DNA of 64,000 nucleotides from an archaeon BMS3Abin17 (GTDB lineage Archaea; Nanobdellota; Nanobdellia; Pacearchaeales; GW2011-AR1): NCBI GenBank assembly GCA_002897655.1, contig BDTJ01000044.1:1605-65604 (forward strand), given 5' to 3'. Of this stretch, positions 8,872 to 59,254 are shown piece by piece. The first letter of the stretch is position 1; every line of letters starts with the position of its first letter. The notes below the pieces were generated by a model. The model was not told where the DNA came from and made no database searches. It saw only the letters and a list, made by a program, of their open reading frames with translations. A program made the translations under genes and the position numbers.

Positions 8872-9252
8872 TTACTTATTTCTAAACCCGACTGAGAGCA
8901 GGTAAATTAAAGAAGAAGATAATGCTCCAAGTGCATCAACTCCAATATCAAAAAAAGAGGAGTCTCTTCCAGGAATAAAATACTGGTGTAGCTCATCTGT
9001 TATCCCGTAAATTATAGAGATTATCAATGCTAAGATAAATATAGCATATTTTTTCTTCCCCTTGAGAGAAGAAATTTGCAAGAAAAGTGCAAAACAAAAG
9101 AAAGCAGAAAAATGATATAATGTTGAAAGCATGTTTATCCTGGATATTCCTGGACCAAAAGTTATTGTTGATATGTAAAATATAGCAATGGCTCCAATAA
9201 GGGTGACAACCCAAGAAATCTTGTTGTGTTTTTCAAACCACCTCAGCACCAT
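8872..9252 (-). CDS. VanZ-family membrane protein
   Basis: DELHQYFIPGRDSSFFDIGVDALG matches the VanZ signature. Multi-TM. Confidence 0.6.
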   Translation of the reverse strand: MVLRWFEKHNKISWVVTLIGAIAIFYISTITFGPGISRINMLSTLYHFSAFFCFALFLQISSLKGKKKYAIFILALIISIIYGITDELHQYFIPGRDSSFFDIGVDALGALSSSLIYLLSVGFRNK

Positions 9253-9267
9253 AAAGTAGAATATAAA

Positions 9268-9305
9268 AAAGTATTTTTAAGGATTTATGTGATTTTTGAA
9301 CGGGA
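9268..9305 (-). promoter_or_regulatory. conserved ~35-nt promoter-proximal element (CGTTCAAAAA-CACATAAATCCTTAAAAA as read on the minus strand) upstream of the VanZ gene
   Basis: A near-identical block recurs at 9560-9600, upstream of the Zn-ribbon gene. It contains a TTAAAAA TATA-like box about 25 nt before the ATG. Confidence 0.45.
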
Positions 9306-9322
9306 AGTATGAAAAATTTATT

Positions 9323-9535: not shown

Positions 9536-9559
9536 AAGATGATGTGGATCTTTATATTT

Positions 9560-9600
9560 TTTAAGGATTTATGTGTTTTTGAACGGAAAGTGTAAAATGT
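9560..9600 (-). promoter_or_regulatory. second copy of the conserved promoter-proximal element
   Basis: See the copy at 9268-9305. Same orientation relative to the downstream minus-strand gene. Confidence 0.45.
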
Positions 9601-11024: not shown

Positions 11025-11133
11025 AGTATAATTTAGACTTTTTTCTTTTTATAGATTGTTGTTATTTTTGAACGGGAAGTCTAAAATAAACTCTTTCCTC
11101 AAGATCTTAATCCGAAGGTTCCATGCTCTGATT

Positions 11134-11706
11134 CTAGAGTATCATTCCTTTTCCTCTACTATATTCAGAAGAAATACTTTCTTGGAGTCTCTTATCTCTT
11201 AATTCTTCTTGGAGTAAATATCCATCTACAATTGCTTTTACTCTTTCAATTCTAGTTTTATGTTTGGGGGTTTCTTCAAATAATAAGTTCTTAAGTGCAT
11301 TAGCCCCAACTAAATTATCCTTTGGTTCCTTAGCACACCAGATTTTTTTATTTATTATAAGATAATTTCCTTTTATTTTTGTCCCAGGAATCTCTCCTTC
11401 TCTAAATATTTGTATTCCCCCTTCAAACAAAAGTCTTCTTTCAGGTTTTATATCTTGATTATCTGTCCAGACATCATGACTAAAAGGGATTATATCTGCT
11501 AGATATTTTGATGCAGATGCATTTATGAAATATGAACCCACAACACCCTCTCTTACAAAATCGCTTCCCATGAATTCTACTATCTCTGTAGAGCCTACCC
11601 AATATTTTGGCATCCTAAAATACCCCTTTCTTAAAGGTCTTTCCCAGTCACAAATACTTTCATCGTTTAGAAAGATTAAATTTTCTGCACTCTTCTTTTC
11701 ACTCAT
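11134..11706 (-). CDS. hypothetical protein; start moved to the internal Met (MSEKK...) because the tracked N-terminus is encoded by a repeat element
   Basis: The ORF's first 52 codons lie inside the 121-nt repeat at 11781-11899, which is non-coding elsewhere. Confidence 0.4.
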   Translation of the reverse strand: MSEKKSAENLIFLNDESICDWERPLRKGYFRMPKYWVGSTEIVEFMGSDFVREGVVGSYFINASASKYLADIIPFSHDVWTDNQDIKPERRLLFEGGIQIFREGEIPGTKIKGNYLIINKKIWCAKEPKDNLVGANALKNLLFEETPKHKTRIERVKAIVDGYLLQEELRDKRLQESISSEYSRGKGMIL

Positions 11707-11780
11707 AAAACTCTTAACTTTTTTAGGATTAATAAATATTATTGTGATTGCGAGAAGTCGTTCTTTTGAGAGTGACTTGT

Positions 11781-11899
11781 TATGCCAAGGATTCTGGAGA
11801 AAACCACACACTTTAGTGTGTGGATGAATCCTTGGACATCCTAAAGCCCAGACAAACCGCACCTTTTAAGGTGCGGTAAAACACAAGGACTTTTTGATT
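11781..11899. repeat. 121-nt hairpin-rich repeat, copy A (inverted relative to copies B and C)
   Basis: Near-identical to 57346-57466 and 58532-58652 as a reverse complement. Contains perfect hairpins CCGCACCTT-AA-AAGGTGCGG and CCACACACTTTAGTGTGTGG. Confidence 0.8.
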
Positions 11900-12013: not shown

Positions 12014-12451
12014 ATGGATTGTCCATACTGCTCAAGTAAAGAATTAAAAGTAACTGATAAAAGAGAGTCTCCTGATGGTATAAGAAGGAGACGTGAATGC
12101 CTTAAATGTAAAAATAGATTTACAACATATGAGAGGGTGGAAAGGAGTGATTTGTATCTTATTAAAAAAGATGGGAACAGAGAAAAATTTGAAAGGGAAA
12201 AACTAGAAATAGGGGTTCAAAAAGCATTTGAAAAGCGTCCTGTTTCAAAAGAAAAAATTGACAAGATGATAAACGAGATTGAAGAGCAATTGAGAAAAAA
12301 AGGTAAAAAAGAGGTTAAGAGTTCTATTGTTGGAGAATTAACAATGAAAAAGATAAAAAAATTGGACAATGTGGCATACATAAGATTTGCATCTGTTTAC
12401 AGAGATTTTCAAGATGTTAGTGATTTTAAAAAGGAGTTAAAGGAGTTGTGA
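12014..12451 (+). CDS. nrdR: transcriptional repressor NrdR (zinc ribbon + ATP-cone)
   Basis: CPYC...IRRRRECLKCKNRFTTYE matches the NrdR N-terminus. The ATP-cone region follows. Confidence 0.85.
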   Translation: MDCPYCSSKELKVTDKRESPDGIRRRRECLKCKNRFTTYERVERSDLYLIKKDGNREKFEREKLEIGVQKAFEKRPVSKEKIDKMINEIEEQLRKKGKKEVKSSIVGELTMKKIKKLDNVAYIRFASVYRDFQDVSDFKKELKEL

Positions 12452-17429: not shown

Positions 17430-17440
17430 TTAATTACAAC

Positions 17441-17653
17441 ATGGTAGAATTTAATGTAGTTATAGAAAAAGATGAAGATGGGATGTATGTAGCAAGTGTT
17501 CCAGAGATTCATGGGTGTCATACTCAGGGAAAAACAATCCAAGAAGTTTTAGAAAGAATTAAAGAGGCTATTGAAGTGTGTTTAGAAGCAGACGGTGAAG
17601 AAATTACTCCTATGAAATTTGTTGGAATACAAAGGGTAGAGATTGCAAGATAA
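17441..17653 (+). CDS. hicB: HicB-family antitoxin
   Basis: UPF0150/HicB-like sequence (FNVVIEKDEDGMYVASVPEIHGCHTQGKTIQEVLERIKEAIE). Confidence 0.7.
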   Translation: MVEFNVVIEKDEDGMYVASVPEIHGCHTQGKTIQEVLERIKEAIEVCLEADGEEITPMKFVGIQRVEIAR

Positions 17654-17879
17654 AATGAGTAAACTTCCGCTTATTTCTGGTAAAAAACTTTGCAAATTCC
17701 TGGAAAAGTTAGGTTTTGAGATGATACATGGAAAAGGAAGCCATAGGAGATTTAAACATTTGGATGGAAGAAGAACTGTTGTTCCTGTTCATGGGAATGA
17801 GAAGATAGGGAGAGGATTGCTAAGAGAGATAATTAAGCAAATGAAAATAACAAGAGAAGAATTTGAAAAGATGTTATAG
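17643..17879 (+). CDS. hicA: HicA-family mRNA interferase toxin
   Basis: YcfA/HicA motif (KLxKxLEKxGFxxxHxKGSHRRF). Overlaps hicB by 11 nt. Confidence 0.75.
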   Translation: MQDKMSKLPLISGKKLCKFLEKLGFEMIHGKGSHRRFKHLDGRRTVVPVHGNEKIGRGLLREIIKQMKITREEFEKML

Positions 17880-18123
17880 ACCAATCGAGGCCATAGTGGT
17901 TATTCTAAAAATTGGTTATACAAATATTTATAAGGTAAAGGATTTCTTGAGCTCTATGAAACAAGTTGGGAAAATATTTAGCCTATTTAGTTTGTTAAGT
18001 GAAGAAGAAAGGCAAAAATTGACATCATTACAAAAAACTGAACAAACAACTGAAGGAAGAGTAAGAAGATTTAATGAGACAATTGATGGAAAAACTCAGA
18101 AAATGACATCCTCCGCACCCTAA
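17863..18123 (+). CDS. hypothetical protein
   Basis: 86-aa ORF between hicA and the IS element. Confidence 0.3.
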   Translation: MKRCYRPIEAIVVILKIGYTNIYKVKDFLSSMKQVGKIFSLFSLLSEEERQKLTSLQKTEQTTEGRVRRFNETIDGKTQKMTSSAP

Positions 18124-18124
18124 A

Positions 18125-18790
18125 GGGCTGAAGCACTGAAGATGCGGTTTCCATCAAACCATTTATCCAAAAGTTGCATCGTGATGAGTTGATTGATTTC
18201 TTACATATTCCTTTACAACATCAAGTTGGACAAATCCAACACTTGAAGCAAATTTGCCTCTGCTCCAGAGATGCCCTTTTGGATACCTGAATCTTGCTTT
18301 TTTATGAAACTCGAAAAATAATTTTGAAGATCCCCCTTTCAAAAGTTGTAATGTCTTTGAAACAGACATTGTAAAACTAACTTCCACAACACAATGGATG
18401 TGTTCTGGCTGAACATCGAGTTCAATTATCTTTATGCCGTGTCTCGACGCTGATCTCCTCACACAAGCCCCCAATAAATTTTTATATTTAGTTTTTCTAA
18501 ACATCTTATACAGATATTTAGTGCACCATTCTAGATGCAACATCACAACTCCAACGCTGTGATCAGTTCTTTTGTATTGATTTATTTGTAATTGCTGTTC
18601 CATTTATCCTCCAGAGCATTTGCTAAGCAAATGCAAACATTTATTTATTCTAAAAAAGTTATCACTATGTGTAACTTTCAATGGCTTAGATACTAAGCCA
18701 TTTTATAATCAATATTTTCTAGAATAAATAATTAGTGGAGAATCATCACTCCATCTTCAAAGATGGAGATTTCTTTTTAATTAATAGAAG
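18125..18790 (-). mobile_element. IS200/IS605-family insertion sequence (boundaries approximate)
   Basis: tnpA plus subterminal hairpins at 18690-18706 (GGCTTAG-ATAC-CTAAGCC) and 18740-18775. Confidence 0.5.
18163..18603 (-). CDS. tnpA: IS200/IS605-family transposase TnpA (HUH Y1)
   Basis: HuH motif (EHIHCVV) and conserved Y1 transposase core. Length 146 aa. Confidence 0.8.
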   Translation of the reverse strand: MEQQLQINQYKRTDHSVGVVMLHLEWCTKYLYKMFRKTKYKNLLGACVRRSASRHGIKIIELDVQPEHIHCVVEVSFTMSVSKTLQLLKGGSSKLFFEFHKKARFRYPKGHLWSRGKFASSVGFVQLDVVKEYVRNQSTHHDATFG

Positions 18791-49061: not shown

Positions 49062-52000
49062 TTAAACCTTCAAAGTAATTATCTTTGAGACTCCGTCATG
49101 CATGCTTACACCATAAAGATTTGAGGCATTTGTAATCACTTCGTCATTGTGGGTTATTACTATATACTGGCCTTTTTGCATGTATTTTCTGAGAAGGCCT
49201 GCAAGTCTCTCAGAATTTCTTTTATCCAATGCTGCATCAATCTCATCAAGTATGTAAAAACAATACGGGCTGTATTCCTGAATTGCAAAGATAAGGGATA
49301 ATGCCACAATAGTCTGTTCTCCTCCTGAAAGAGAGGTAACATCAAAGTATTTTCCATGCCCTGTCTTGACAATTATATTCACCCCCCCTTCAAAAGGGTC
49401 TTTTCTATTTTCCAATTCTAATGAAACCCGCCCCTTTGTGCTTAATTGAGAGAAATTCCTTGAGAAGGTCTCATTTAATGAATCAAGGGTTTTAAAGAAA
49501 GTCTTTTTCTTTTTAATATCAATCTCATGAATAATCTTCATGATTCCTTCTTTTTCCTTGTTGATTATCTCTACTTTTTCTTTTATCAAGTCATATTCTT
49601 TTTTTATTGAATCATAGACTTCTAATGAACGCAGATTAACGGTTCCAATTTTTGATAATATTTCTTGTGTTCTTTCCAGCTTATGAATAAGAGACTCTTT
49701 TGTTGCTTTTATTATCTCAACATTTGGATATCCCAGCATATCTGTCTCTAAATTCTCAATTGCTGCATCAATCTTTGCTTTTTCTATTTTTAATAAATTA
49801 GTATCCTGCTCAAAATTATGAATTGAATTTTGCCTGGTCAAAATAAAAGACTCAAAATCCCTTATTTTCTTCTGCAGGCCTTCTCTTTCAGAGATTAGTT
49901 TTTGGAATTTTCTGGTAAGGGCCTCTTCCTTGCCTTTTTTATCTTCTAAAAAACTCTCTTTTTCTTCAATACTCTCCTTTAGGTCAGAAACATCCTCTTT
50001 GATATCTTCTTCATCACTAGTTAATTGTTTTAAAGCTGCTTTTGAACGGTCTAATTCTCTTTTCTTAAATGAAGTCTCTGAATCCAAGGTCTCTTTGCTT
50101 CTCATAGATATCTCCTGAATCTCTATTCTTGCAGTCTCATATTTTTGCTCCAGATTAGAATTCCTGTCAGATTTGCTTTCAAGAGATTTTCTTCTTTTTT
50201 CTAATTCAATCATCTCTTTCTTAGAGTCCTCAATTTTTTCATGCAACATTTTTATCTGCTCTTTTTTATCATTGATTCCGAATATTTTAATCTGGTCAGA
50301 CTTTCTACTAGATATCTCTGAATCTATTTCATCTATCTTTTTGTTTAAGATTGCTTTGCTATTGCCTATTTGCTTAAACTCTTTTTCTGATTCTTCTATT
50401 TGCTTTTTAAGATGGTTTATCCTTGGATTAACTTCTTTATGAATTGAAGAAATATGGTCTTTAGTTATCTTGCTTTTGCACAATGGACAAATGTCCATTT
50501 TTGAGATATTTTCCCTAATTTTATTTTGCTTGTCTATTTCATAGCTATTTGTGTAAGATATTTTTTCAAGCTCTTTTTCTCTTTTTTCCAAGTTTTCAAT
50601 CTTTTGTTTATTATTAGATAAGGAAACTTTAAGAGAGTCTAATTTGCCTGAATCTGTGTTTTTGTCAAATAATTCCCTTGTAAGAACCTCTATTTGCTTG
50701 ATTAAATAATCAGACTCTGTTTTATAACTCTGCAAAAGAGAGTTTTTGTCCTCCATTCTCTCTTTAATTGATTTTAATTCTGACTTAGTCATATAAAACT
50801 CTTTTCTTTGCTTTTCCAGATTATCAAGCTCTTGTTTTTTCTCTTCTATGTCTTTTTGCTTTTTTGAAGCAGATGATTTAGAACTCTGCAGTTCTTTTAT
50901 TTCTGATTCTAAATCCCTTATTTTTTGAGCCAGATCTATTCTTTGATTTTCAACTTCAGAGAGCTTTCTTTCAGAATTATCCAACCTTACATTTAAACCA
51001 GCTAATTCTGCTCTTAAATTAGCTATTTCCTGGTTCAATTTTTCCTGCTCTATTCCAGTAGATTTTTGAATATTTTGGTTTATTGAACTTATTTTTGATT
51101 CAAAGCTTTCAATAGTAACCCTTGTATTTGTTATTATTTTTTTTATCTTATTTATCTCATTATCTTTTTCCAGAATTCGCTTGTCCATCTTTTCTCTTTC
51201 TCTTTTTCTATTTGTTAAATCAGAATGAATTATGCTTGCTCTGTATCTTTTGGCATCTTTTTCAAGTTTCTTAAATCTCAAGGCCTCCTGCCTTTCTCTT
51301 TCAAGATTATTCAAATATGCTGTTCTCTCCCTTAGTATTGATGAAACTTCTTTTAATTTATCCCCTGTTCTTTCTAATTCTTTCAGAGACTTTTGCTTTC
51401 TTACCTCATATATTGAGATTCCAGAAACCTCTTCTATTATTTTTCTTCTCTCTTCTGTATGCATTCTTACAAAATTCTGAATCTCTCCCTGCAAGATAAT
51501 ATTAAATCCATTAGGGTCTATTCCTGCCTGTGCCAATAAGGTCAACACCTCTTGTCTTGTCTTTGTCTCATTATTTATCCTGTAGATACTCTGCCCGTTT
51601 TTTCTTACAATCCTCTTTATTGAAATCTCATTATTATCTATAGAAAAAATCTTATCAGAGTTATCAAAAACAATCTCAACTGATGCTTCTTTTGCAGGAG
51701 ACAATGCCTTTGTTCCCAGAAATATCAGGTTTTTTGCTTTTGCTGCCCTCATTGACTTGATTGAGAGTCTTCCCAATACAAAACACAAAGCATCTGTTAT
51801 GTTTGAATTATGGACAAAGATATTATTAGCCAAAAAGTTGTGATGTTCATCTACACATAAATCATAAACCCACCCTTCTCCATTTATCTCGCTTATATCT
51901 GTTATTTCGTCCCAGAAAATATCAGAATACGCCAAAAAATTTAATTTTTTTATTAATTCAGAGTTTCCTTTAAACAATTGTTTTGACAATAACTGAAGAC

Positions 52001-53516
52001 CATTTCTTGAAGGAAAGCATTGATTATAACAGTATGCCTCAAGGAGGGGAAATTGCATCTTTGTATGTTTTACATTAATCTTTAATTCCTTAGTTATGTC
52101 TTTAACTAAGTTGTTGATTCCTATTAAATCTGTATTCGGATTGCTCTTCTTTTTTAAGTAATCTTTTATCCTCTGTCTTTTAACTTGGTGAATTAATTGA
52201 ATACTGTCGTCAAATATTCTGAAGTTATCAACCCCAGTAATTATGATTGTTTTGTATTTTCCTGTGAATCCTGATGATTTTATTCCCTTAATTTGGTCTC
52301 TTGTTGAAAACAGAATTCCTAATCTTAGCAGGCAAGTCTCTATGCCTTGTGCTAATGGTGCGCTTTTAGTTGTAATTTCTATGGAACTTTTAGAAACATA
52401 TCCATCCCCGCAGTAAAGTCCGTTAAGTAATTCCGATACCTCCTTACCTGATGAATGTTTTAATAAGATATTTGATATTTTTTTCCCTGAAGTATTAGAT
52501 GCCATCCCAAGTTTTGACAATATCTTTTTTAGTGGTTCAGAATAAATTATTACATCCCAGCAATTAGGCTTGTATTCCCTGACTAAAGGTTTCTTGTTAA
52601 ATAACTTTTCAACCAGAGTTATATAATCATCCACAATATTTTTATCCCCATTAGTAAACCATATCTGACTTGATTCAGCCAGCCTGCCTTCAGCTAAAAG
52701 ATAACCAAAAAACCTTGAAAATTCCGGAGAATTTGTAAAATTAAAACTTGTTTTTTTCCCATTAGAAATCAACTCATTAATCAAATTGGTTATCTCTAAA
52801 TCTGATAAATTCGCGTATCTGAGTATTCTAATCAAATAACAAAAATTAATTGATTGCTTATCCAATAATCCCTTAATCACATAATAAGAGATGCCTATTT
52901 TCTCTGCTAATTGCTTCCAGATTAGATTATCTTTTATTGACCTCAAAATTAAAGAATATTCCTCTTTATAGGGCACATAAATCCCATCATTTTCACTAAT
53001 CAAACTTAAAAGTTCTGTAAAGGTTTTATCTTTGGTCTCAAAATTTAATGCCCTCGGGACAGCAATCCTAACTCCCTGCTTTAATTCGTCAGCTCTTGCT
53101 TCTACAATCTGATTGTTTTTTAATATGAATAAAGGGTGATATTTTGTTGTTTTTACTGCTCTTCCAGACCTGGTTTTTATTGAAAGAATCTTCTCAGGGG
53201 ATGTTCTTTTAACAAATGATTTTACCTTTGTTCTTTCTGTTTTAAGGGTCTTTAAATTCAGGCTAATGACTTCTAAACCATCCCCTGGGATTAAAAAACC
53301 ATCTTCTGTTTTTACTGCTTTGTTCAATCTGGAATTAATTATATTGTCTATTCTCTCACTAGTGCCATCTCCAAGAGTTACAATAGAATCTCCGGTCAGG
53401 CATTTCCCACTTCCATTAGGGCCAAGAACTACATTTATCCCCTGATTAAAAGGTATTTCTGTCTTTCTGATAAAGCTTTTAAATCCGTGCATCACCAGTT
53501 TTTTGATATATGGCAT
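49062..53516 (-). CDS. rad50: Rad50/SbcC-family ATPase with zinc hook, interrupted by an intein in the Walker A motif
   Basis: GPNGSGK|C...HN|SNITDALCFVLG. CPLC zinc hook in mid coiled-coil. LSGGE signature, Walker B (ILDEIDAALD) and H-loop. The extein is 952 aa. Confidence 0.8.
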   Translation of the reverse strand: MPYIKKLVMHGFKSFIRKTEIPFNQGINVVLGPNGSGKCLTGDSIVTLGDGTSERIDNIINSRLNKAVKTEDGFLIPGDGLEVISLNLKTLKTERTKVKSFVKRTSPEKILSIKTRSGRAVKTTKYHPLFILKNNQIVEARADELKQGVRIAVPRALNFETKDKTFTELLSLISENDGIYVPYKEEYSLILRSIKDNLIWKQLAEKIGISYYVIKGLLDKQSINFCYLIRILRYANLSDLEITNLINELISNGKKTSFNFTNSPEFSRFFGYLLAEGRLAESSQIWFTNGDKNIVDDYITLVEKLFNKKPLVREYKPNCWDVIIYSEPLKKILSKLGMASNTSGKKISNILLKHSSGKEVSELLNGLYCGDGYVSKSSIEITTKSAPLAQGIETCLLRLGILFSTRDQIKGIKSSGFTGKYKTIIITGVDNFRIFDDSIQLIHQVKRQRIKDYLKKKSNPNTDLIGINNLVKDITKELKINVKHTKMQFPLLEAYCYNQCFPSRNGLQLLSKQLFKGNSELIKKLNFLAYSDIFWDEITDISEINGEGWVYDLCVDEHHNFLANNIFVHNSNITDALCFVLGRLSIKSMRAAKAKNLIFLGTKALSPAKEASVEIVFDNSDKIFSIDNNEISIKRIVRKNGQSIYRINNETKTRQEVLTLLAQAGIDPNGFNIILQGEIQNFVRMHTEERRKIIEEVSGISIYEVRKQKSLKELERTGDKLKEVSSILRERTAYLNNLERERQEALRFKKLEKDAKRYRASIIHSDLTNRKREREKMDKRILEKDNEINKIKKIITNTRVTIESFESKISSINQNIQKSTGIEQEKLNQEIANLRAELAGLNVRLDNSERKLSEVENQRIDLAQKIRDLESEIKELQSSKSSASKKQKDIEEKKQELDNLEKQRKEFYMTKSELKSIKERMEDKNSLLQSYKTESDYLIKQIEVLTRELFDKNTDSGKLDSLKVSLSNNKQKIENLEKREKELEKISYTNSYEIDKQNKIRENISKMDICPLCKSKITKDHISSIHKEVNPRINHLKKQIEESEKEFKQIGNSKAILNKKIDEIDSEISSRKSDQIKIFGINDKKEQIKMLHEKIEDSKKEMIELEKRRKSLESKSDRNSNLEQKYETARIEIQEISMRSKETLDSETSFKKRELDRSKAALKQLTSDEEDIKEDVSDLKESIEEKESFLEDKKGKEEALTRKFQKLISEREGLQKKIRDFESFILTRQNSIHNFEQDTNLLKIEKAKIDAAIENLETDMLGYPNVEIIKATKESLIHKLERTQEILSKIGTVNLRSLEVYDSIKKEYDLIKEKVEIINKEKEGIMKIIHEIDIKKKKTFFKTLDSLNETFSRNFSQLSTKGRVSLELENRKDPFEGGVNIIVKTGHGKYFDVTSLSGGEQTIVALSLIFAIQEYSPYCFYILDEIDAALDKRNSERLAGLLRKYMQKGQYIVITHNDEVITNASNLYGVSMHDGVSKIITLKV
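51807..53402 (-). other. intein (532 aa) with LAGLIDADG homing-endonuclease domain, inserted between K38 and S of the Rad50 P-loop
   Basis: Begins with Cys and ends with HN followed by Ser. Two LAGLIDADG motifs (FFGYLLAEGRL, LNGLYCGDGYV). The flanks reconstitute GPNGSGKSN. Confidence 0.75.
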
Positions 53517-54368: not shown

Positions 54369-55403
54369 TTAAATTGCAAGAATGCTCTTTTTTACTGGCA
54401 ATTTTATCCATTTTCCATCTTTTTTATTCCTCCTTATTAAATTTAGTTTCTCAAGTTCTTTGAGCCTTCTAAATGAAGCCTTCCAACAAACATTAAATTT
54501 CTTTGCAAGCTCTGCAGTCTGTTTAGGTCTATCTAAGAAAAGTAGATATCCCTTTTTAAGCTTTGATATAATAATGAGATTCTTATCATTTGTCCAATAA
54601 TCAATGCTTCCCACTCTAAAATTATGTACTCTCCTTTGTTTTTTTAATAAAACCAGTACATCCTGTGTCCTTGCAAATGATCTTTTAAATTTATTTGATA
54701 AATCTCGCGTTGTTAAGGGTTTTTCTAAAATAGTATAAATTTTCTTAATTAAATAATGTTTTTCATAATGTTCTTGTTTAAAATCATTATAAACTCTCCA
54801 AAATTTCTCTTTTTTTAAGGGATGTAAGTCTGCTAATTTTAATTTTGCAAAAACATCCCAATTAAATTTCTTAGTAATTACATAATTTCTATTTCCTGTC
54901 TCAAATGAAAAACTTATATTTAAAGAATTCAATAAATCATCTATAAACTTTTTTCTTTCTTTCTGAGATACTCTTAGAACACGGACACTTTTTCTGCCAA
55001 CATGTACATTACCTTCTCCAGCAAAAAATCCTTTTAATATATTTGGGAAGAATTCTTTCTTATCCAAAAAAAATTTTACAATCTTCTTCCACTCCTTAAC
55101 CATCTCAACTGAAGCAAATCTAAGAATAAAGAAAGGTTTTATTGCCTTTTTATGAACATAATACTTTACTACACAGTTTTTATAATGTATTTTAACCTTT
55201 TTTTTGTCTTTAGAGTAAACATATATTCTAGGATTATAATTATGTTTGTAAAATATCTTATTAATTGTTCTATAAAATAAATTTACTAAATCCCAACAAT
55301 TATTTGTGAATGTAATCTCTGATTTAGTTTTGTTATCTCCTTCTGCTAACCATAAACCAACACATTTTGCGATATTTTCATTTGGGGCTAATAACCTGTC
55401 CAT
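54369..55403 (-). CDS. free-standing double-motif LAGLIDADG endonuclease-like protein with C-terminal winged-helix domain
   Basis: VGLWLAEGD and LKGFFAGEGNV motifs. C-terminal HTH-like ELAKKFNVCWKASFRRLKELEKLNLIRR. Its stop abuts the rnhB start. Confidence 0.55.
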   Translation of the reverse strand: MDRLLAPNENIAKCVGLWLAEGDNKTKSEITFTNNCWDLVNLFYRTINKIFYKHNYNPRIYVYSKDKKKVKIHYKNCVVKYYVHKKAIKPFFILRFASVEMVKEWKKIVKFFLDKKEFFPNILKGFFAGEGNVHVGRKSVRVLRVSQKERKKFIDDLLNSLNISFSFETGNRNYVITKKFNWDVFAKLKLADLHPLKKEKFWRVYNDFKQEHYEKHYLIKKIYTILEKPLTTRDLSNKFKRSFARTQDVLVLLKKQRRVHNFRVGSIDYWTNDKNLIIISKLKKGYLLFLDRPKQTAELAKKFNVCWKASFRRLKELEKLNLIRRNKKDGKWIKLPVKKSILAI

Positions 55404-56875: not shown

Positions 56876-57345
56876 GATTGAATCTTAATCCTGTTTTTAG
56901 ATGCTGAGATTCTTTTATAATCATTTATTTTTTATTAAATTGTTGGTTTCTGTAAAGATGATATAGTTCAGCCCAGAATCTTTTTAATTAATTTAATGTT
57001 ATAATCTAATGGAAACAAGACAAGGAATTGATGTGAATCCAATTTGGAATTTGATGACTTGCCTTTTTTATGAATGTTGCGATAAAAAAGAAGAAAGAGA
57101 AAAAACTTTAATATTAGGAAAGTGTATGTATAACCCAAGTGTATTCAAATGTGAGGAATTTCAAAAAAGAAGTAAAGGGGTAGTTTATGACTTAGATTAT
57201 CTATAATGGTAATTCTTAGATATCTTCCTTATTTATAATATGATTATACCACCTTCTAAAAGGCACTCCTTCCCAATCTTGAGTTCCTTTAGGCCTTAGT
57301 TCATTTGGGAAAATAGAAGCTATTTCTAAAGCATCCCCAAAAACT

Positions 57346-57466
57346 GCATCAAAAAGTCCTTGTGTTTTACCGCACCTTAAAAGGTGCGGTTTGTTTGGAC
57401 TTTAGGATGTCCAAGGATTCATCCACACACTAAAGTGTGTGGTTTTCTCCAGGAATCCCTGGCATA
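57346..57466. repeat. 121-nt hairpin-rich repeat, copy B
   Basis: Identical to copy C over ~115 nt and an inverted match to copy A. Confidence 0.8.
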
Positions 57467-57749
57467 ATTAAATGAATGATTAAGATTACAATCTTCCCAG
57501 TTAATCTTTTGTTTATTCATTTCCATAATACAAGGATGTAACTATGAGTGCACACTGATTTCCCTGCGAATCTCTAAGACTTCCTTGATTAAAGGAAAAT
57601 CCATAAAAAGGGCATCTTGGTCTTGTTTTAAAAGTCATGTGAAGCAAAAAATGTTTAGGTTTAAATAAATAATTGTAACAAACAATAACCTTTAAAACTT
57701 CATAATTTATTCTATATTCATGCCTTATCATAGGCATGACCTTTTCAAG

Positions 57750-57951
57750 GCCTCGATCGCATAATGGTATTGCACGAGATTGCTAATGCCCAACTTTCCT
57801 TACCGGGAGAACGAAAGTTCTCAGGGCCCAAAGAACCATGGGTTCTTAGGGGGAAAGAAAGTTCGGCGCTCAAAGAACCACATCAGGCTCTGCGAGCATA
57901 GTAAACATCTCGATCCTTCGGGATGCGCAGGTTCGATTCCTGCTCGAGGCG
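57750..57951 (+). tRNA. tRNA-Ser (anticodon GCT) with a 121-nt intron at the canonical 37/38 position
   Basis: Acceptor GCCTCGA/TCGAGGC plus discriminator G. Anticodon stem CGAGA/TCTCG split by the intron (57786-57906). Long variable arm ATCCTTCGGGATG. T-arm GCAGG-TTCGATT-CCTGC. Confidence 0.7.
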
Positions 57952-57989
57952 TATTCACCCTGGTAAAAAGAGTTCTGATATATTTGAAA

Positions 57990-58619
57990 ATGATAAACTC
58001 CTTAAAATCTCTAAGAATCAGTAAATTAGTTGGAAATCTCTCTAAAACAGTATTTAGTGAAGGTTTGCCAGATGAGACTATTCCTTTTGAAGATTTGAAA
58101 AGGCTAAATTTTGATTTAGATATAGATCCATCTCTTTGGAGGAAGTATAAGAGAAGTCATAATTTTAGATACTCTGGAGCTTCAACAGCAGAACATTTGA
58201 CAATGGGCTTAATGAGATTATTATTTGAAAATAAAAATTCTCCAGATATAAATTATTCTACATTGAGAGAAGTATTATCAGAAAAAGATTCAACAAGGAT
58301 TGCTGTTTTAAATGCTCATGAAGGGAATGTTAAAGGTAATTGGATTTATTCTTTTAAGGGGTCTCAGGCCCCAGTCCAGAAGTGGATAGATGAAATTAGT
58401 TCTAGGAATTTGAAATCCAGAAAAAAATATGGGGCGTTATTTGTATGCTGCTGTAATGGAGACTCATTAATTCCTGATTATACAGAAATACCTATATTTT
58501 ATCTTAAAGGAATATTTGAAAGTGGAGGCAAATATCAAAAAGTCCTTGTGTTTTACCGCACCTTAAAAGGTGCGGTTTGTTTGGACTTTAGGATGTCCAA
58601 GGATTCATCCACACACTAA
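57990..58619 (+). CDS. hypothetical protein; start moved downstream of the tRNA, and the 3' end runs into repeat copy C
   Basis: The tracked ORF 57780.. begins inside the tRNA intron. The first Met after the tRNA is used instead. Confidence 0.3.
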   Translation: MINSLKSLRISKLVGNLSKTVFSEGLPDETIPFEDLKRLNFDLDIDPSLWRKYKRSHNFRYSGASTAEHLTMGLMRLLFENKNSPDINYSTLREVLSEKDSTRIAVLNAHEGNVKGNWIYSFKGSQAPVQKWIDEISSRNLKSRKKYGALFVCCCNGDSLIPDYTEIPIFYLKGIFESGGKYQKVLVFYRTLKGAVCLDFRMSKDSSTH

Positions 58620-58652
58620 AGTGTGTGGTTTTCTCCAGGAATCCCTGGCATA
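58532..58652. repeat. 121-nt hairpin-rich repeat, copy C
   Basis: Direct repeat of copy B, 1.19 kb downstream. Confidence 0.8.
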
Positions 58653-58660
58653 AAAATTAA

Positions 58661-59254
58661 TTACTCAATAACAACAAAGTTGTTTCTTCCTGATTTCTTT
58701 GCTTTATAGAGTGCCTTATCCACTCTAAGCTTCATTTTTCTTTTTGTATCGTTTTTACCTCTAAACTGAGTTACCCCCCCACTTACAGTAAGACCATGTT
58801 TTTTTAGAACAGAATCTGAATTAATAACTTTTCTTAATCTTATAGTTAATTTTCTTGCCTTTACTAAATTTGTCGCCGGAAGCAGAATAATAAACTCTTC
58901 TCCCCCAAATCTTGCAAGAATATCTGGTTTTCTTATGTGTCTTTTTAAGGCACTTGAAAGATTCCCTAATAACTCATCTGCTCTAATATGCCCATAAGTG
59001 TCATTTATTTTCTTAAAAAAATCAATATCAATTATTATTAAAGATAAATCTTCTTTTGTTCTCTTGGCTCTCTCAATTCCAAGGTCAAAGACATTTTCAA
59101 AAAATTTACTGTTATACAACCCTGTTTTTTCATCATGAGTTGCCTCTTCATACAGCAAGGAAATAGATTCCATTATTACTTCAAATAATTCTTCAACCTT
59201 TTTCCTAAATTTTGGATCTAAAGAAGATATCCTCCTCTTTATTTTTCTATCCAT
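58661..59254 (-). CDS. stand-alone GGDEF-domain diguanylate cyclase (GGEEF active-site variant)
   Basis: DEKTGLYN, LIIIDIDFFKKINDTYGH, RFGGEEF, TVSGGV and ADKALYKAKKSGRN motifs span the whole GGDEF fold. Length 197 aa. Confidence 0.85.
   Translation of the reverse strand: MDRKIKRRISSLDPKFRKKVEELFEVIMESISLLYEEATHDEKTGLYNSKFFENVFDLGIERAKRTKEDLSLIIIDIDFFKKINDTYGHIRADELLGNLSSALKRHIRKPDILARFGGEEFIILLPATNLVKARKLTIRLRKVINSDSVLKKHGLTVSGGVTQFRGKNDTKRKMKLRVDKALYKAKKSGRNNFVVIE

Follow-up and report, generated by a model that had tools for sequence, protein, structure and literature searches.

Structured repeats around a tRNA-Ser gene of a DPANN archaeon are very probably 116-nt gene-less elements of the IS200/IS605 family

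Two identical copies of a structured repeat lie on either side of an intron-containing tRNA-Ser gene in the archaeon BMS3Abin17, which raises the question of what kind of unit the repeat is and whether the bracketed tRNA has any part in it. We addressed this question for a stretch of 64,000 nucleotides (contig BDTJ01000044.1 of assembly GCA_002897655.1, positions 1,605 to 65,604), hereafter called the window, in which positions are counted from its first letter. An earlier note on this DNA had offered three readings, namely a MITE (miniature inverted-repeat transposable element), an attachment-site duplication around an integrated tRNA-associated element, and a family of structured small RNAs. 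Our analysis indicates that the repeats are very probably 116-nt non-autonomous elements of the IS200/IS605 family of insertion sequences (IS), which move by "peel and paste" as single-stranded DNA. Each would consist of a left and a right end fused together without a gene in between, in the manner of the palindrome-associated transposable elements (PATEs).

The repeat unit is 120 nt long, and its two copies round the tRNA gene (copy A, 57348-57467; copy B, 58534-58653) are 100% identical, run in the same direction and are spaced 1186 nt apart. Their identity had been recognized before, but not their exact extent, which had been given as 121 nt with starts at 57346 and 58532. The third copy, described as lying on the opposite strand with a few mismatches, was found at 11780-11898 (copy C, 119 nt), where three substitutions and a 1-nt deletion leave 96.7% identity. 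A fourth copy (copy D), identical to A and B, is located on the same contig 1.7 kb past the end of the window (L001 3400-3519), so there are more than the three copies known at the outset, and the 77-kb contig carries four, three of them 100% identical. This contig has a GC content of 32% and comes from a DPANN-type archaeon whose relatives are named Candidatus Pacearchaeota. Contigs from further assemblies of this organism stop inside or at the repeat (L004, L015, L017 and L018), an effect that multi-copy elements typically have on assembly. Copy C sits between divergent genes, an open reading frame (ORF) that ends at 11697 on the minus strand and nrdR at 12014 on the plus strand, and it is kept in every related assembly that spans the site.

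The precise boundaries of the element were revealed by the genes that it interrupts. Copy D splits a gene for a GNAT acetyltransferase, from which gene callers produce "proteins" of 101 and 74 aa. Deletion of 116 nt, with TTAT kept, restores a single ORF of 139 aa reading IVVHKDYRNKEY, and the restored protein aligns without a gap across the junction with eight uninterrupted orthologues (136-143 aa, 56-69% identity); a deletion of 119 or 120 nt would not give this gap-free alignment. The donor site regained in this way is GTTCATAAGGAT. Removing 116 nt of copy A from a second gene, here called P2, likewise puts ...HSFNY/AVFGDAL... (the slash marks the insertion point) in a single frame, and the alignment of P2 with its paralogue P1 crosses the insertion point with 45% identity (E 7e-29). 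Copy B was inserted in the last codons of the ORF at 57990-58619, and its deletion leaves ...ESGGKYKN followed by a stop codon. The ends of copy A (Table 1) were set from the GNAT empty-site reconstruction together with the tabulated ends of the other insertions.

The interrupted GNAT gene occupies L001 3204-3739, equivalent to about 65.5-66.1 kb and beyond the window; it is intact in related archaea, and in public records it stands as two hypothetical proteins, for example BMS3Abin17_01392. P1 and P2 share a CPFYGF...GNQCAL motif, and both appear to have been damaged independently of the transposon, P1 by a frameshift and an in-frame TAG at the position of the Trp of P2, and P2 by a frameshift after GNQCAL. 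No Pfam family matched P1, P2 or the 209-aa ORF that ends in copy B.

Across nine independent insertions, representing four genomes' worth of data, TTAT stands directly 5' of the left end every time, where we estimate a chance expectation of about 1% per site in a genome of 32% GC, and the last four nucleotides of the element are TGAT, again nine times out of nine. All nine elements also carry, on the same strand, two subterminal hairpins of 7-8 bp, one at a distance of 19-21 nt from the left end and the other at 20-22 nt from the right. These correspond to the two perfect hairpins that had been pointed out earlier, which on the plus strand of copy A read CCGCACC-TTAAAA-GGTGCGG and CCACACAC-TAAA-GTGTGTGG; the second is real, although it had been quoted as its reverse complement. 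The GGATG...CATCC palindrome of the same description is present in the window copies, but CATCC is not kept in the relatives of the element. With 116 nt, the element is too short for a transposase, and all of its frames are either closed or artefactual extensions of neighbouring ORFs. The repeat does lengthen the ORFs 11134..11862 and 57780..58619, as had been suspected, and the latter additionally runs spuriously through the tRNA gene, its true start being at 57990. A peptide query with the repeat-derived ORF tails matched only one of the GNAT fragments (P0136).

Terminal inverted repeats were not found: the termini GCCAGGGATT... and ...ACTTTTTGAT are non-complementary, and an inverted-repeat scan returned only the internal hairpins and the matches between copies. 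Nor was a target-site duplication found in the nine insertions, whose flanks share only TTAT, and on one side only. Of the MITE reading, the part that holds is that of a non-coding, non-autonomous mobile element, whereas an inverted-repeat element is contradicted by the lack of both features. Classical MITEs (Correia, Stowaway/Tourist-like, Sulfolobus SM) are likewise small, non-coding and multi-copy, are mobilized in trans, and extend or disrupt ORFs, but their termini are inverted repeats, and their DDE transposases leave target duplications. An IS630- or IS5-type MITE was set aside in particular because duplications of TA or TAA are not present. A reading modelled on the bridge RNA of IS110, with two internal loops and a shared AT dinucleotide, was dropped because the flanks share only four bases, and one based on IS607 and a serine recombinase with a 2-nt core was abandoned in favour of a Y1 transposase system once tnpA and the guide code described below had been found.

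The same insertions bear on the attachment-site reading, according to which copies A and B would be the attL and attR of a 1.2-kb element integrated beside or together with the tRNA-Ser gene through a site-specific integrase. The copies are indeed direct and identical, and they flank a tRNA gene and one ORF. However, the N-terminal part of P2 lies inside the bracketed segment and its C-terminal part outside, which a single integration cannot yield; identical copies occupy three unrelated sites, the repeat does not overlap the tRNA, every copy has its own TTAT, and no integrase was found in or near the segment in the Pfam lists. We regard this explanation as exceedingly improbable. Copies A and B are instead independent insertions, one into P2 and the other into the end of the 209-aa ORF, and because they are separate events, their bracketing of the tRNA gene is incidental.

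Further support for an IS200/IS605 element comes from the bases next to the hairpins. In IS608, the four bases 5' of each hairpin read the cleavage sites, the left guide AAAG reading TTAC and the right guide GAAT reading TCAA; A16 pairs with T-3 and A17 with T-4, and an A of the guide inserts into the protein. Numbering the cleavage site C-4 to C-1 and the guide G1 to G4, we used, partly by analogy, the mapping C-4:G2, C-3:G1 and C-1:G4, with G3 = A and C-2 = A, which fits both ends of IS608. All positions of the miniature element fit this mapping (left guide and site AAAA/TTAT, right CAAA/TGAT), as do all positions of the full-length IS copies described below (left AAAT/TTAA, right GAAA/TCAT), and wherever element and IS differ, guide and site carry compensating changes. 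The conserved TTTG and TTTT seen after the hairpins on the plus strand are these two guides. From the foot of the left hairpin to the cleavage site there are 21 nt in copy A, compared with 19 in IS608, and the right cleavage site of the full-length IS is 10 nt from its hairpin, the same distance as in IS608.

The guide code also fixes the orientation of the element. The plus strand of copies A and B was at first taken as the top (transposed) strand, as suggested by the resemblance of ATCAAAAAG to the IS start ACTAAAAAG and by the fact that element and IS would both end in CAT; this was dropped because the conserved target would then be on the wrong side. The minus strand was adopted because target, guides and cleavage sites then fit the IS608 code and CCGCACC aligns with the right end of the IS. 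In copies A, B and D, the top strand accordingly corresponds to the minus strand of the window, and in copy C to its plus strand.

The complete IS in the window is of the IS200 type, with a left end TTAA/TTAAAAAGAAAT(CTCCATCTTTGAAGATGGAG) and a right end ...GGAAA(CCGCA..CCCTTTAGGGTGCGG)AGGATGTCAT/ (hairpins in parentheses). Its boundaries were placed by homology to multi-copy relatives whose flanks diverge at the same points. The gene tnpA, which was encountered through a neighbourhood look-up for nrdR, encodes a protein that scores 94.8 bits against Pfam Y1_Tnp (E 5e-27), and an alignment with the IS608 TnpA structure 2a6m shows that the HUH motif (HIH) and the catalytic tyrosine (KEYVRNQ) are conserved. 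It has about 1000 close homologues, most of them on contigs of 0.7-1.5 kb; exact boundaries were obtained from flank divergence in two multi-copy lineages and three single copies. The related IS copies are 642-693 bp long and carry only tnpA, start with TTAA/CTAAAAAGAAAT(hairpin) and end with AAA(CCGCAC...CCTTTAGGGTGCGG)AGGAYGTCAT/. At the right end, their hairpin reads AAACCGCA(C)..CC(C)TTTAGGGTGCGG and is nearly identical to the CCGCACC hairpin of the miniature element, with which it has the AAA 5' flank and a T-first loop in common. The right hairpin of the window IS is identical at 20 of 20 positions to the variant in one relative of the miniature element (L006), save for a 15-nt internal insertion, and the left hairpin of one IS lineage (CTGCATC-TTTTAA-GATGCGG) has the loop of the element and shares 17 of its 20 nt. 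An apparent outer stem TTGATGGAAA/TTTCCATCAA round the IS right hairpin, which runs on past the end of the IS, was discounted as probably incidental. Next to this IS lie a tRNA-Lys and the toxin-antitoxin pair hicAB (17440-17880 region).

Table 1. Positions of the miniature elements, the full-length insertion sequence and the neighbouring genes in the window
Feature	Position	Strand	Remarks
Copy A, 116-nt element	57348..57463	minus = top (transposed) strand	Left end 57463, right end (..TGAT) 57348
Copy A, target and left cleavage site TTAT	57464..57467	-	ATAA on the plus strand
Copy A, left guide AAAA	57443-57446	-	Directly 5' of left-end hairpin
Copy A, left-end subterminal hairpin (IPL)	57423..57442	-	CCACACAC-TTTA-GTGTGTGG on top strand
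Copy A, right guide CAAA	57390-57393	-	Directly 5' of right-end hairpin
Copy A, right-end subterminal hairpin (IPR)	57370..57389	-	CCGCACC-TTTTAA-GGTGCGG on top strand
Copy A, right cleavage site TGAT	57348-57351	-	
Copy B, 116-nt element	58534..58649	-	TTAT 58650-58653; hairpins 58609-58628 and 58556-58575
Copy C, 115-nt element	11784..11898	plus = top strand	TTAT 11780-11783; hairpins 11804-11823 and 11857-11876
Complete IS200-type insertion sequence, 678 bp	18103..18780	-	TTAA target 18781-18784
tnpA, 146-aa Y1 (HUH) single-strand DNA transposase	18163..18603	-	Candidate mobiliser in trans
P2, small gene interrupted by copy A	57200..57740	-	Paralogue of P1, 56150-56520 (-)
tRNA-Ser(GCU), bystander outside the element	57750..57951	+	ARAGORN intron mode; Rfam 40.3 bits
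209-aa ORF, bystander	57990..58619	+	Last 29 codons (58533-58619) wholly or partly from copy B

The presence of a Y1-family protein and the hairpin-based nature of the repeats would also suit repetitive extragenic palindromic (REP) sequences or bacterial interspersed mosaic elements (BIMEs) spread by a domesticated REP-associated tyrosine transposase (RAYT, or TnpA-REP), all the more as REPs, according to PMC3333891, resemble IS200/IS605 ends. Like the present element, these repeats are short hairpins that need a Y1 HUH enzyme, with a tetranucleotide next to the hairpin determining cleavage. REPs, however, are single palindromes, often in inverted pairs, that are extragenic and depend on a single-copy domesticated RAYT, whereas here a two-ended unit with distinct left and right ends, defined cleavage sites and two direct rather than inverted hairpins enters genes. 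Instead of occurring once between inverted REPs, the Y1 gene is part of a bona fide, bounded IS of 642-693 bp, and in metagenomes this IS is found in multiple copies whose flanks vary. A REP/RAYT origin therefore appears very unlikely to us.

Relatives of the miniature element were sought in other genomes. A search with the two-stem pattern gave one match in a "Nanoarchaeota" metagenome-assembled genome and five in metagenomes, and two exact-pattern scans of viral contigs gave 0 matches. The relatives are clearly elements of this kind. They share the ends, the short single-stranded motifs and both GC hairpins, while the helices that enclose the hairpins differ in sequence yet still pair. RNAalifold predicted 39 pairs, 14 of which are changed on both sides; by direct count, 97.6% of the cells are paired, and the 14 doubly changed pairs compare with 1-4 when the partners are slid. 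A covariance-model search added two decayed copies, in which hairpins are changed with compensation or one hairpin is deleted, and in the L006/L010 lineage the two hairpin types occur in swapped positions. Upstream of nrdR in another organism there is a pair of related miniature elements (L008, 607-729 on the minus and 790-885 on the plus strand), oppositely oriented and separated by 60 nt. The second of them lacks the left-end hairpin; window copy C is likewise just upstream of nrdR.

This conserved fold is the main argument for the suggestion that the repeats are a family of structured small-RNA genes, whose fold would be kept for a function as RNA. Both strands fold far better than shuffled sequences, with z about -7, the covariation across lineages is clear, and the transposase mechanism leaves the outer helices unexplained. 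The family would have to be new, as the repeat had no Rfam match at gathering score and nothing relevant at E<=10. We consider it quite unlikely as the primary nature of the repeats, since the copies break coding sequences (GNAT and P2), lie at arbitrary sites that share only the TTAT target, and are identical within a genome but diverged between genomes. In addition, the single-stranded motifs that are conserved coincide exactly with the guides and cleavage sites that an IS200/IS605 element has, and the wobble pairs favour neither strand clearly.

The exact restoration of the frame in both intragenic cases, the otherwise intact GNAT halves and the conserved fold might alternatively be explained if the element were removed at the RNA level, like an intron, so that the host genes stay functional. 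Archaeal introns of the bulge-helix-bulge type have two 3-nt bulges, with a 4-bp helix between them, at the exon-intron junctions. No such structure was formed by the conserved ends (..TTAT/GCC.. and ..TGAT/) or the consensus fold, as judged by inspection and not with a dedicated search tool. A group I or II ribozyme would also need far more sequence than the element offers, matches to ribozyme families were absent even at E<=10, and P2 carries further disruptions. Very recent insertions would in any case leave intact gene halves, and the copies are 100% identical. Self-splicing elements linked to IS605 are discussed in 10.1101/2023.11.20.567912, but for the present element we find removal as RNA extremely improbable.

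The repeats are thus not classical MITEs, REP/BIME sequences, an att duplication or a known RNA family, and as far as sequence can tell, the element has all the features of a non-autonomous IS200/IS605 derivative. Several points nevertheless weigh against this assignment. The long covarying outer helices correspond to no known requirement of TnpA and are missing from the ends of the full-length IS; when folded, they tie up the GAT at the terminus, which has to be free for pairing with the guide. The right cleavage site of the element is 20-22 nt from its hairpin, compared with 10 nt in IS608 and the full-length IS. The left hairpin of the window IS, CTCCATCTT..AGATGGAG, is unlike the left hairpin of the element, CCACACAC.., and the 27 kb searched around two more copies of the IS contained no related miniature element. 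The full code mapping, C-2 = A included, extends the IS608 pairs by analogy; for positions -1/4 of both ends, and for the right end generally, it is not taken from a structure. Lastly, comparison with near-identical strains, which might have exposed the bracketed segment as present in some and absent from others, produced no empty site or excision product, as all of these strains carry copies A to D.

Our best guess for the outer helices is that they would fold the 116-nt strand into a two-armed shape and bring both cleavage sites together, a "dumbbell" that, if true, would let very short elements be excised. That these helices serve a selected function of the miniature element itself, whether as such a self-synapsing dumbbell or in an exapted RNA role as terminator or stabilizer, is conceivable but on the whole doubtful.

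Under the IS200/IS605 assignment, a Y1 HUH TnpA supplied in trans would bind both subterminal hairpins of the top strand. Its most likely supplier would be the IS at 18103-18780 or a relative of it, and the TnpA of the window IS is probably the mobiliser; because nothing in this genome's IS clearly corresponds to the left hairpin of the element, the cognate transposase is something that we infer. The cleavage sites would be recognized by DNA-DNA pairing rather than by the protein, with guide AAAA pairing with the flanking TTAT and guide CAAA with the terminal TGAT. The top strand would then leave as a circle, with the predicted junction ...CTTTTTGAT/GCCAGGGATT..., and re-enter single-stranded DNA 3' of another TTAT without any duplication. 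Copies that are identical within a genome and diverged between genomes are a signature of recent transposition; the copies look recently active, and the elements may be active at present.

In terms of strand placement, the top strand of all four miniature copies is the locally G-rich strand (GC skew positive at C and negative at the other three, A, B and D). Such a placement would be consistent with insertion into the template of the lagging strand, while the IS at 18103-18780 is oriented oppositely; the hint is a weak one, with four copies only and gene-strand bias as a confounder.

The closest known counterparts are the PATEs, defined in Haloquadratum walsbyi by their non-coding length, the lack of terminal inverted repeats and target duplication, and near-terminal palindromes like those of IS200/IS605 (PMC3119063); PATE-like elements of Geobacillus IS605 have also been described (PMC10055086). 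The present element is likewise short, has neither inverted repeats nor duplication, carries palindromes near both termini and is homogeneous within its genome. It differs in its DPANN host, in having as partner an IS200-type element with tnpA only and not one of the IS1341/tnpB type, in lacking an omega-RNA, in the longer helix that surrounds each hairpin and covaries between lineages, and in hairpin types that are swappable, as in L006. With IS608 and IS200, it has in common that the subterminal hairpins are on the top strand and that it inserts 3' of a tetranucleotide; also shared are 4-nt guides that follow the same positional code, a left cleavage site about 20 nt from the hairpin, and a transposase with conserved HUH and Tyr. 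It differs from them in being gene-less, in its target (TTAT for the element and TTAA for the IS, as against TTAC), in the 20-22 instead of 10 nt at the right end of the miniature, and in its perfect hairpins, in which no extrahelical base was seen.

With this assignment, an odd structured repeat around a tRNA is replaced by a specific mechanism, and three annotation artefacts are exposed, namely two falsely extended ORFs and one GNAT gene split into two hypothetical proteins. Mobile elements of DPANN archaea have been little described. Here the IS608 guide code shows compensating changes of guide and target, both between the element and the IS that is probably its parent and from one DPANN archaeon to another, which amounts to a natural experiment. 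A guide-programmed TTAT target and a very small size could also be of interest to those who engineer IS608-type single-strand integration. The current understanding of the IS200/IS605 family is unchanged.

The intron-containing tRNA-Ser between copies A and B proved to be genuine. ARAGORN in its intron mode calls it tRNA-Ser(GCU), which the default mode missed, with a mature form of 81 nt and a 121-nt intron (57786-57906) at the canonical 37/38 position. The intron is unusually long and strongly structured, with several hairpins, and by eye it has no obvious sequence similarity to the repeat. In principle, the tRNA-Ser gene and the ORF, with 1.1 kb of intervening DNA, could be moved as a 1.3-kb composite single-strand transposon if the left end of copy B were used jointly with the right end of copy A.

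Some other features of the window lie outside these elements. A protein of 1484 aa that resembles SMC (49062-53516, minus strand) contains an intein with a LAGLIDADG domain (Pfam); two genes away, a free-standing ORF of 344 aa (54369-55403, minus strand) has a weak match to LAGLIDADG_3, with 21.6 bits just below the cut-off. A protein with a GGDEF domain is encoded at 58661-59254 on the minus strand. Lastly, a 41-nt motif, TTTTTAAGGATTTATGTGATTTTTGAACGGGAAGTATGAAA, occurs three times (9274-9314, 9557-9597 and 11046-11086) with 68-83% identity between copies. Each copy precedes a small minus-strand ORF (starts at 9252, 9535 and 11024), being about 20 nt upstream of the start in the minus sense, and the motif may be a shared promoter or operator.

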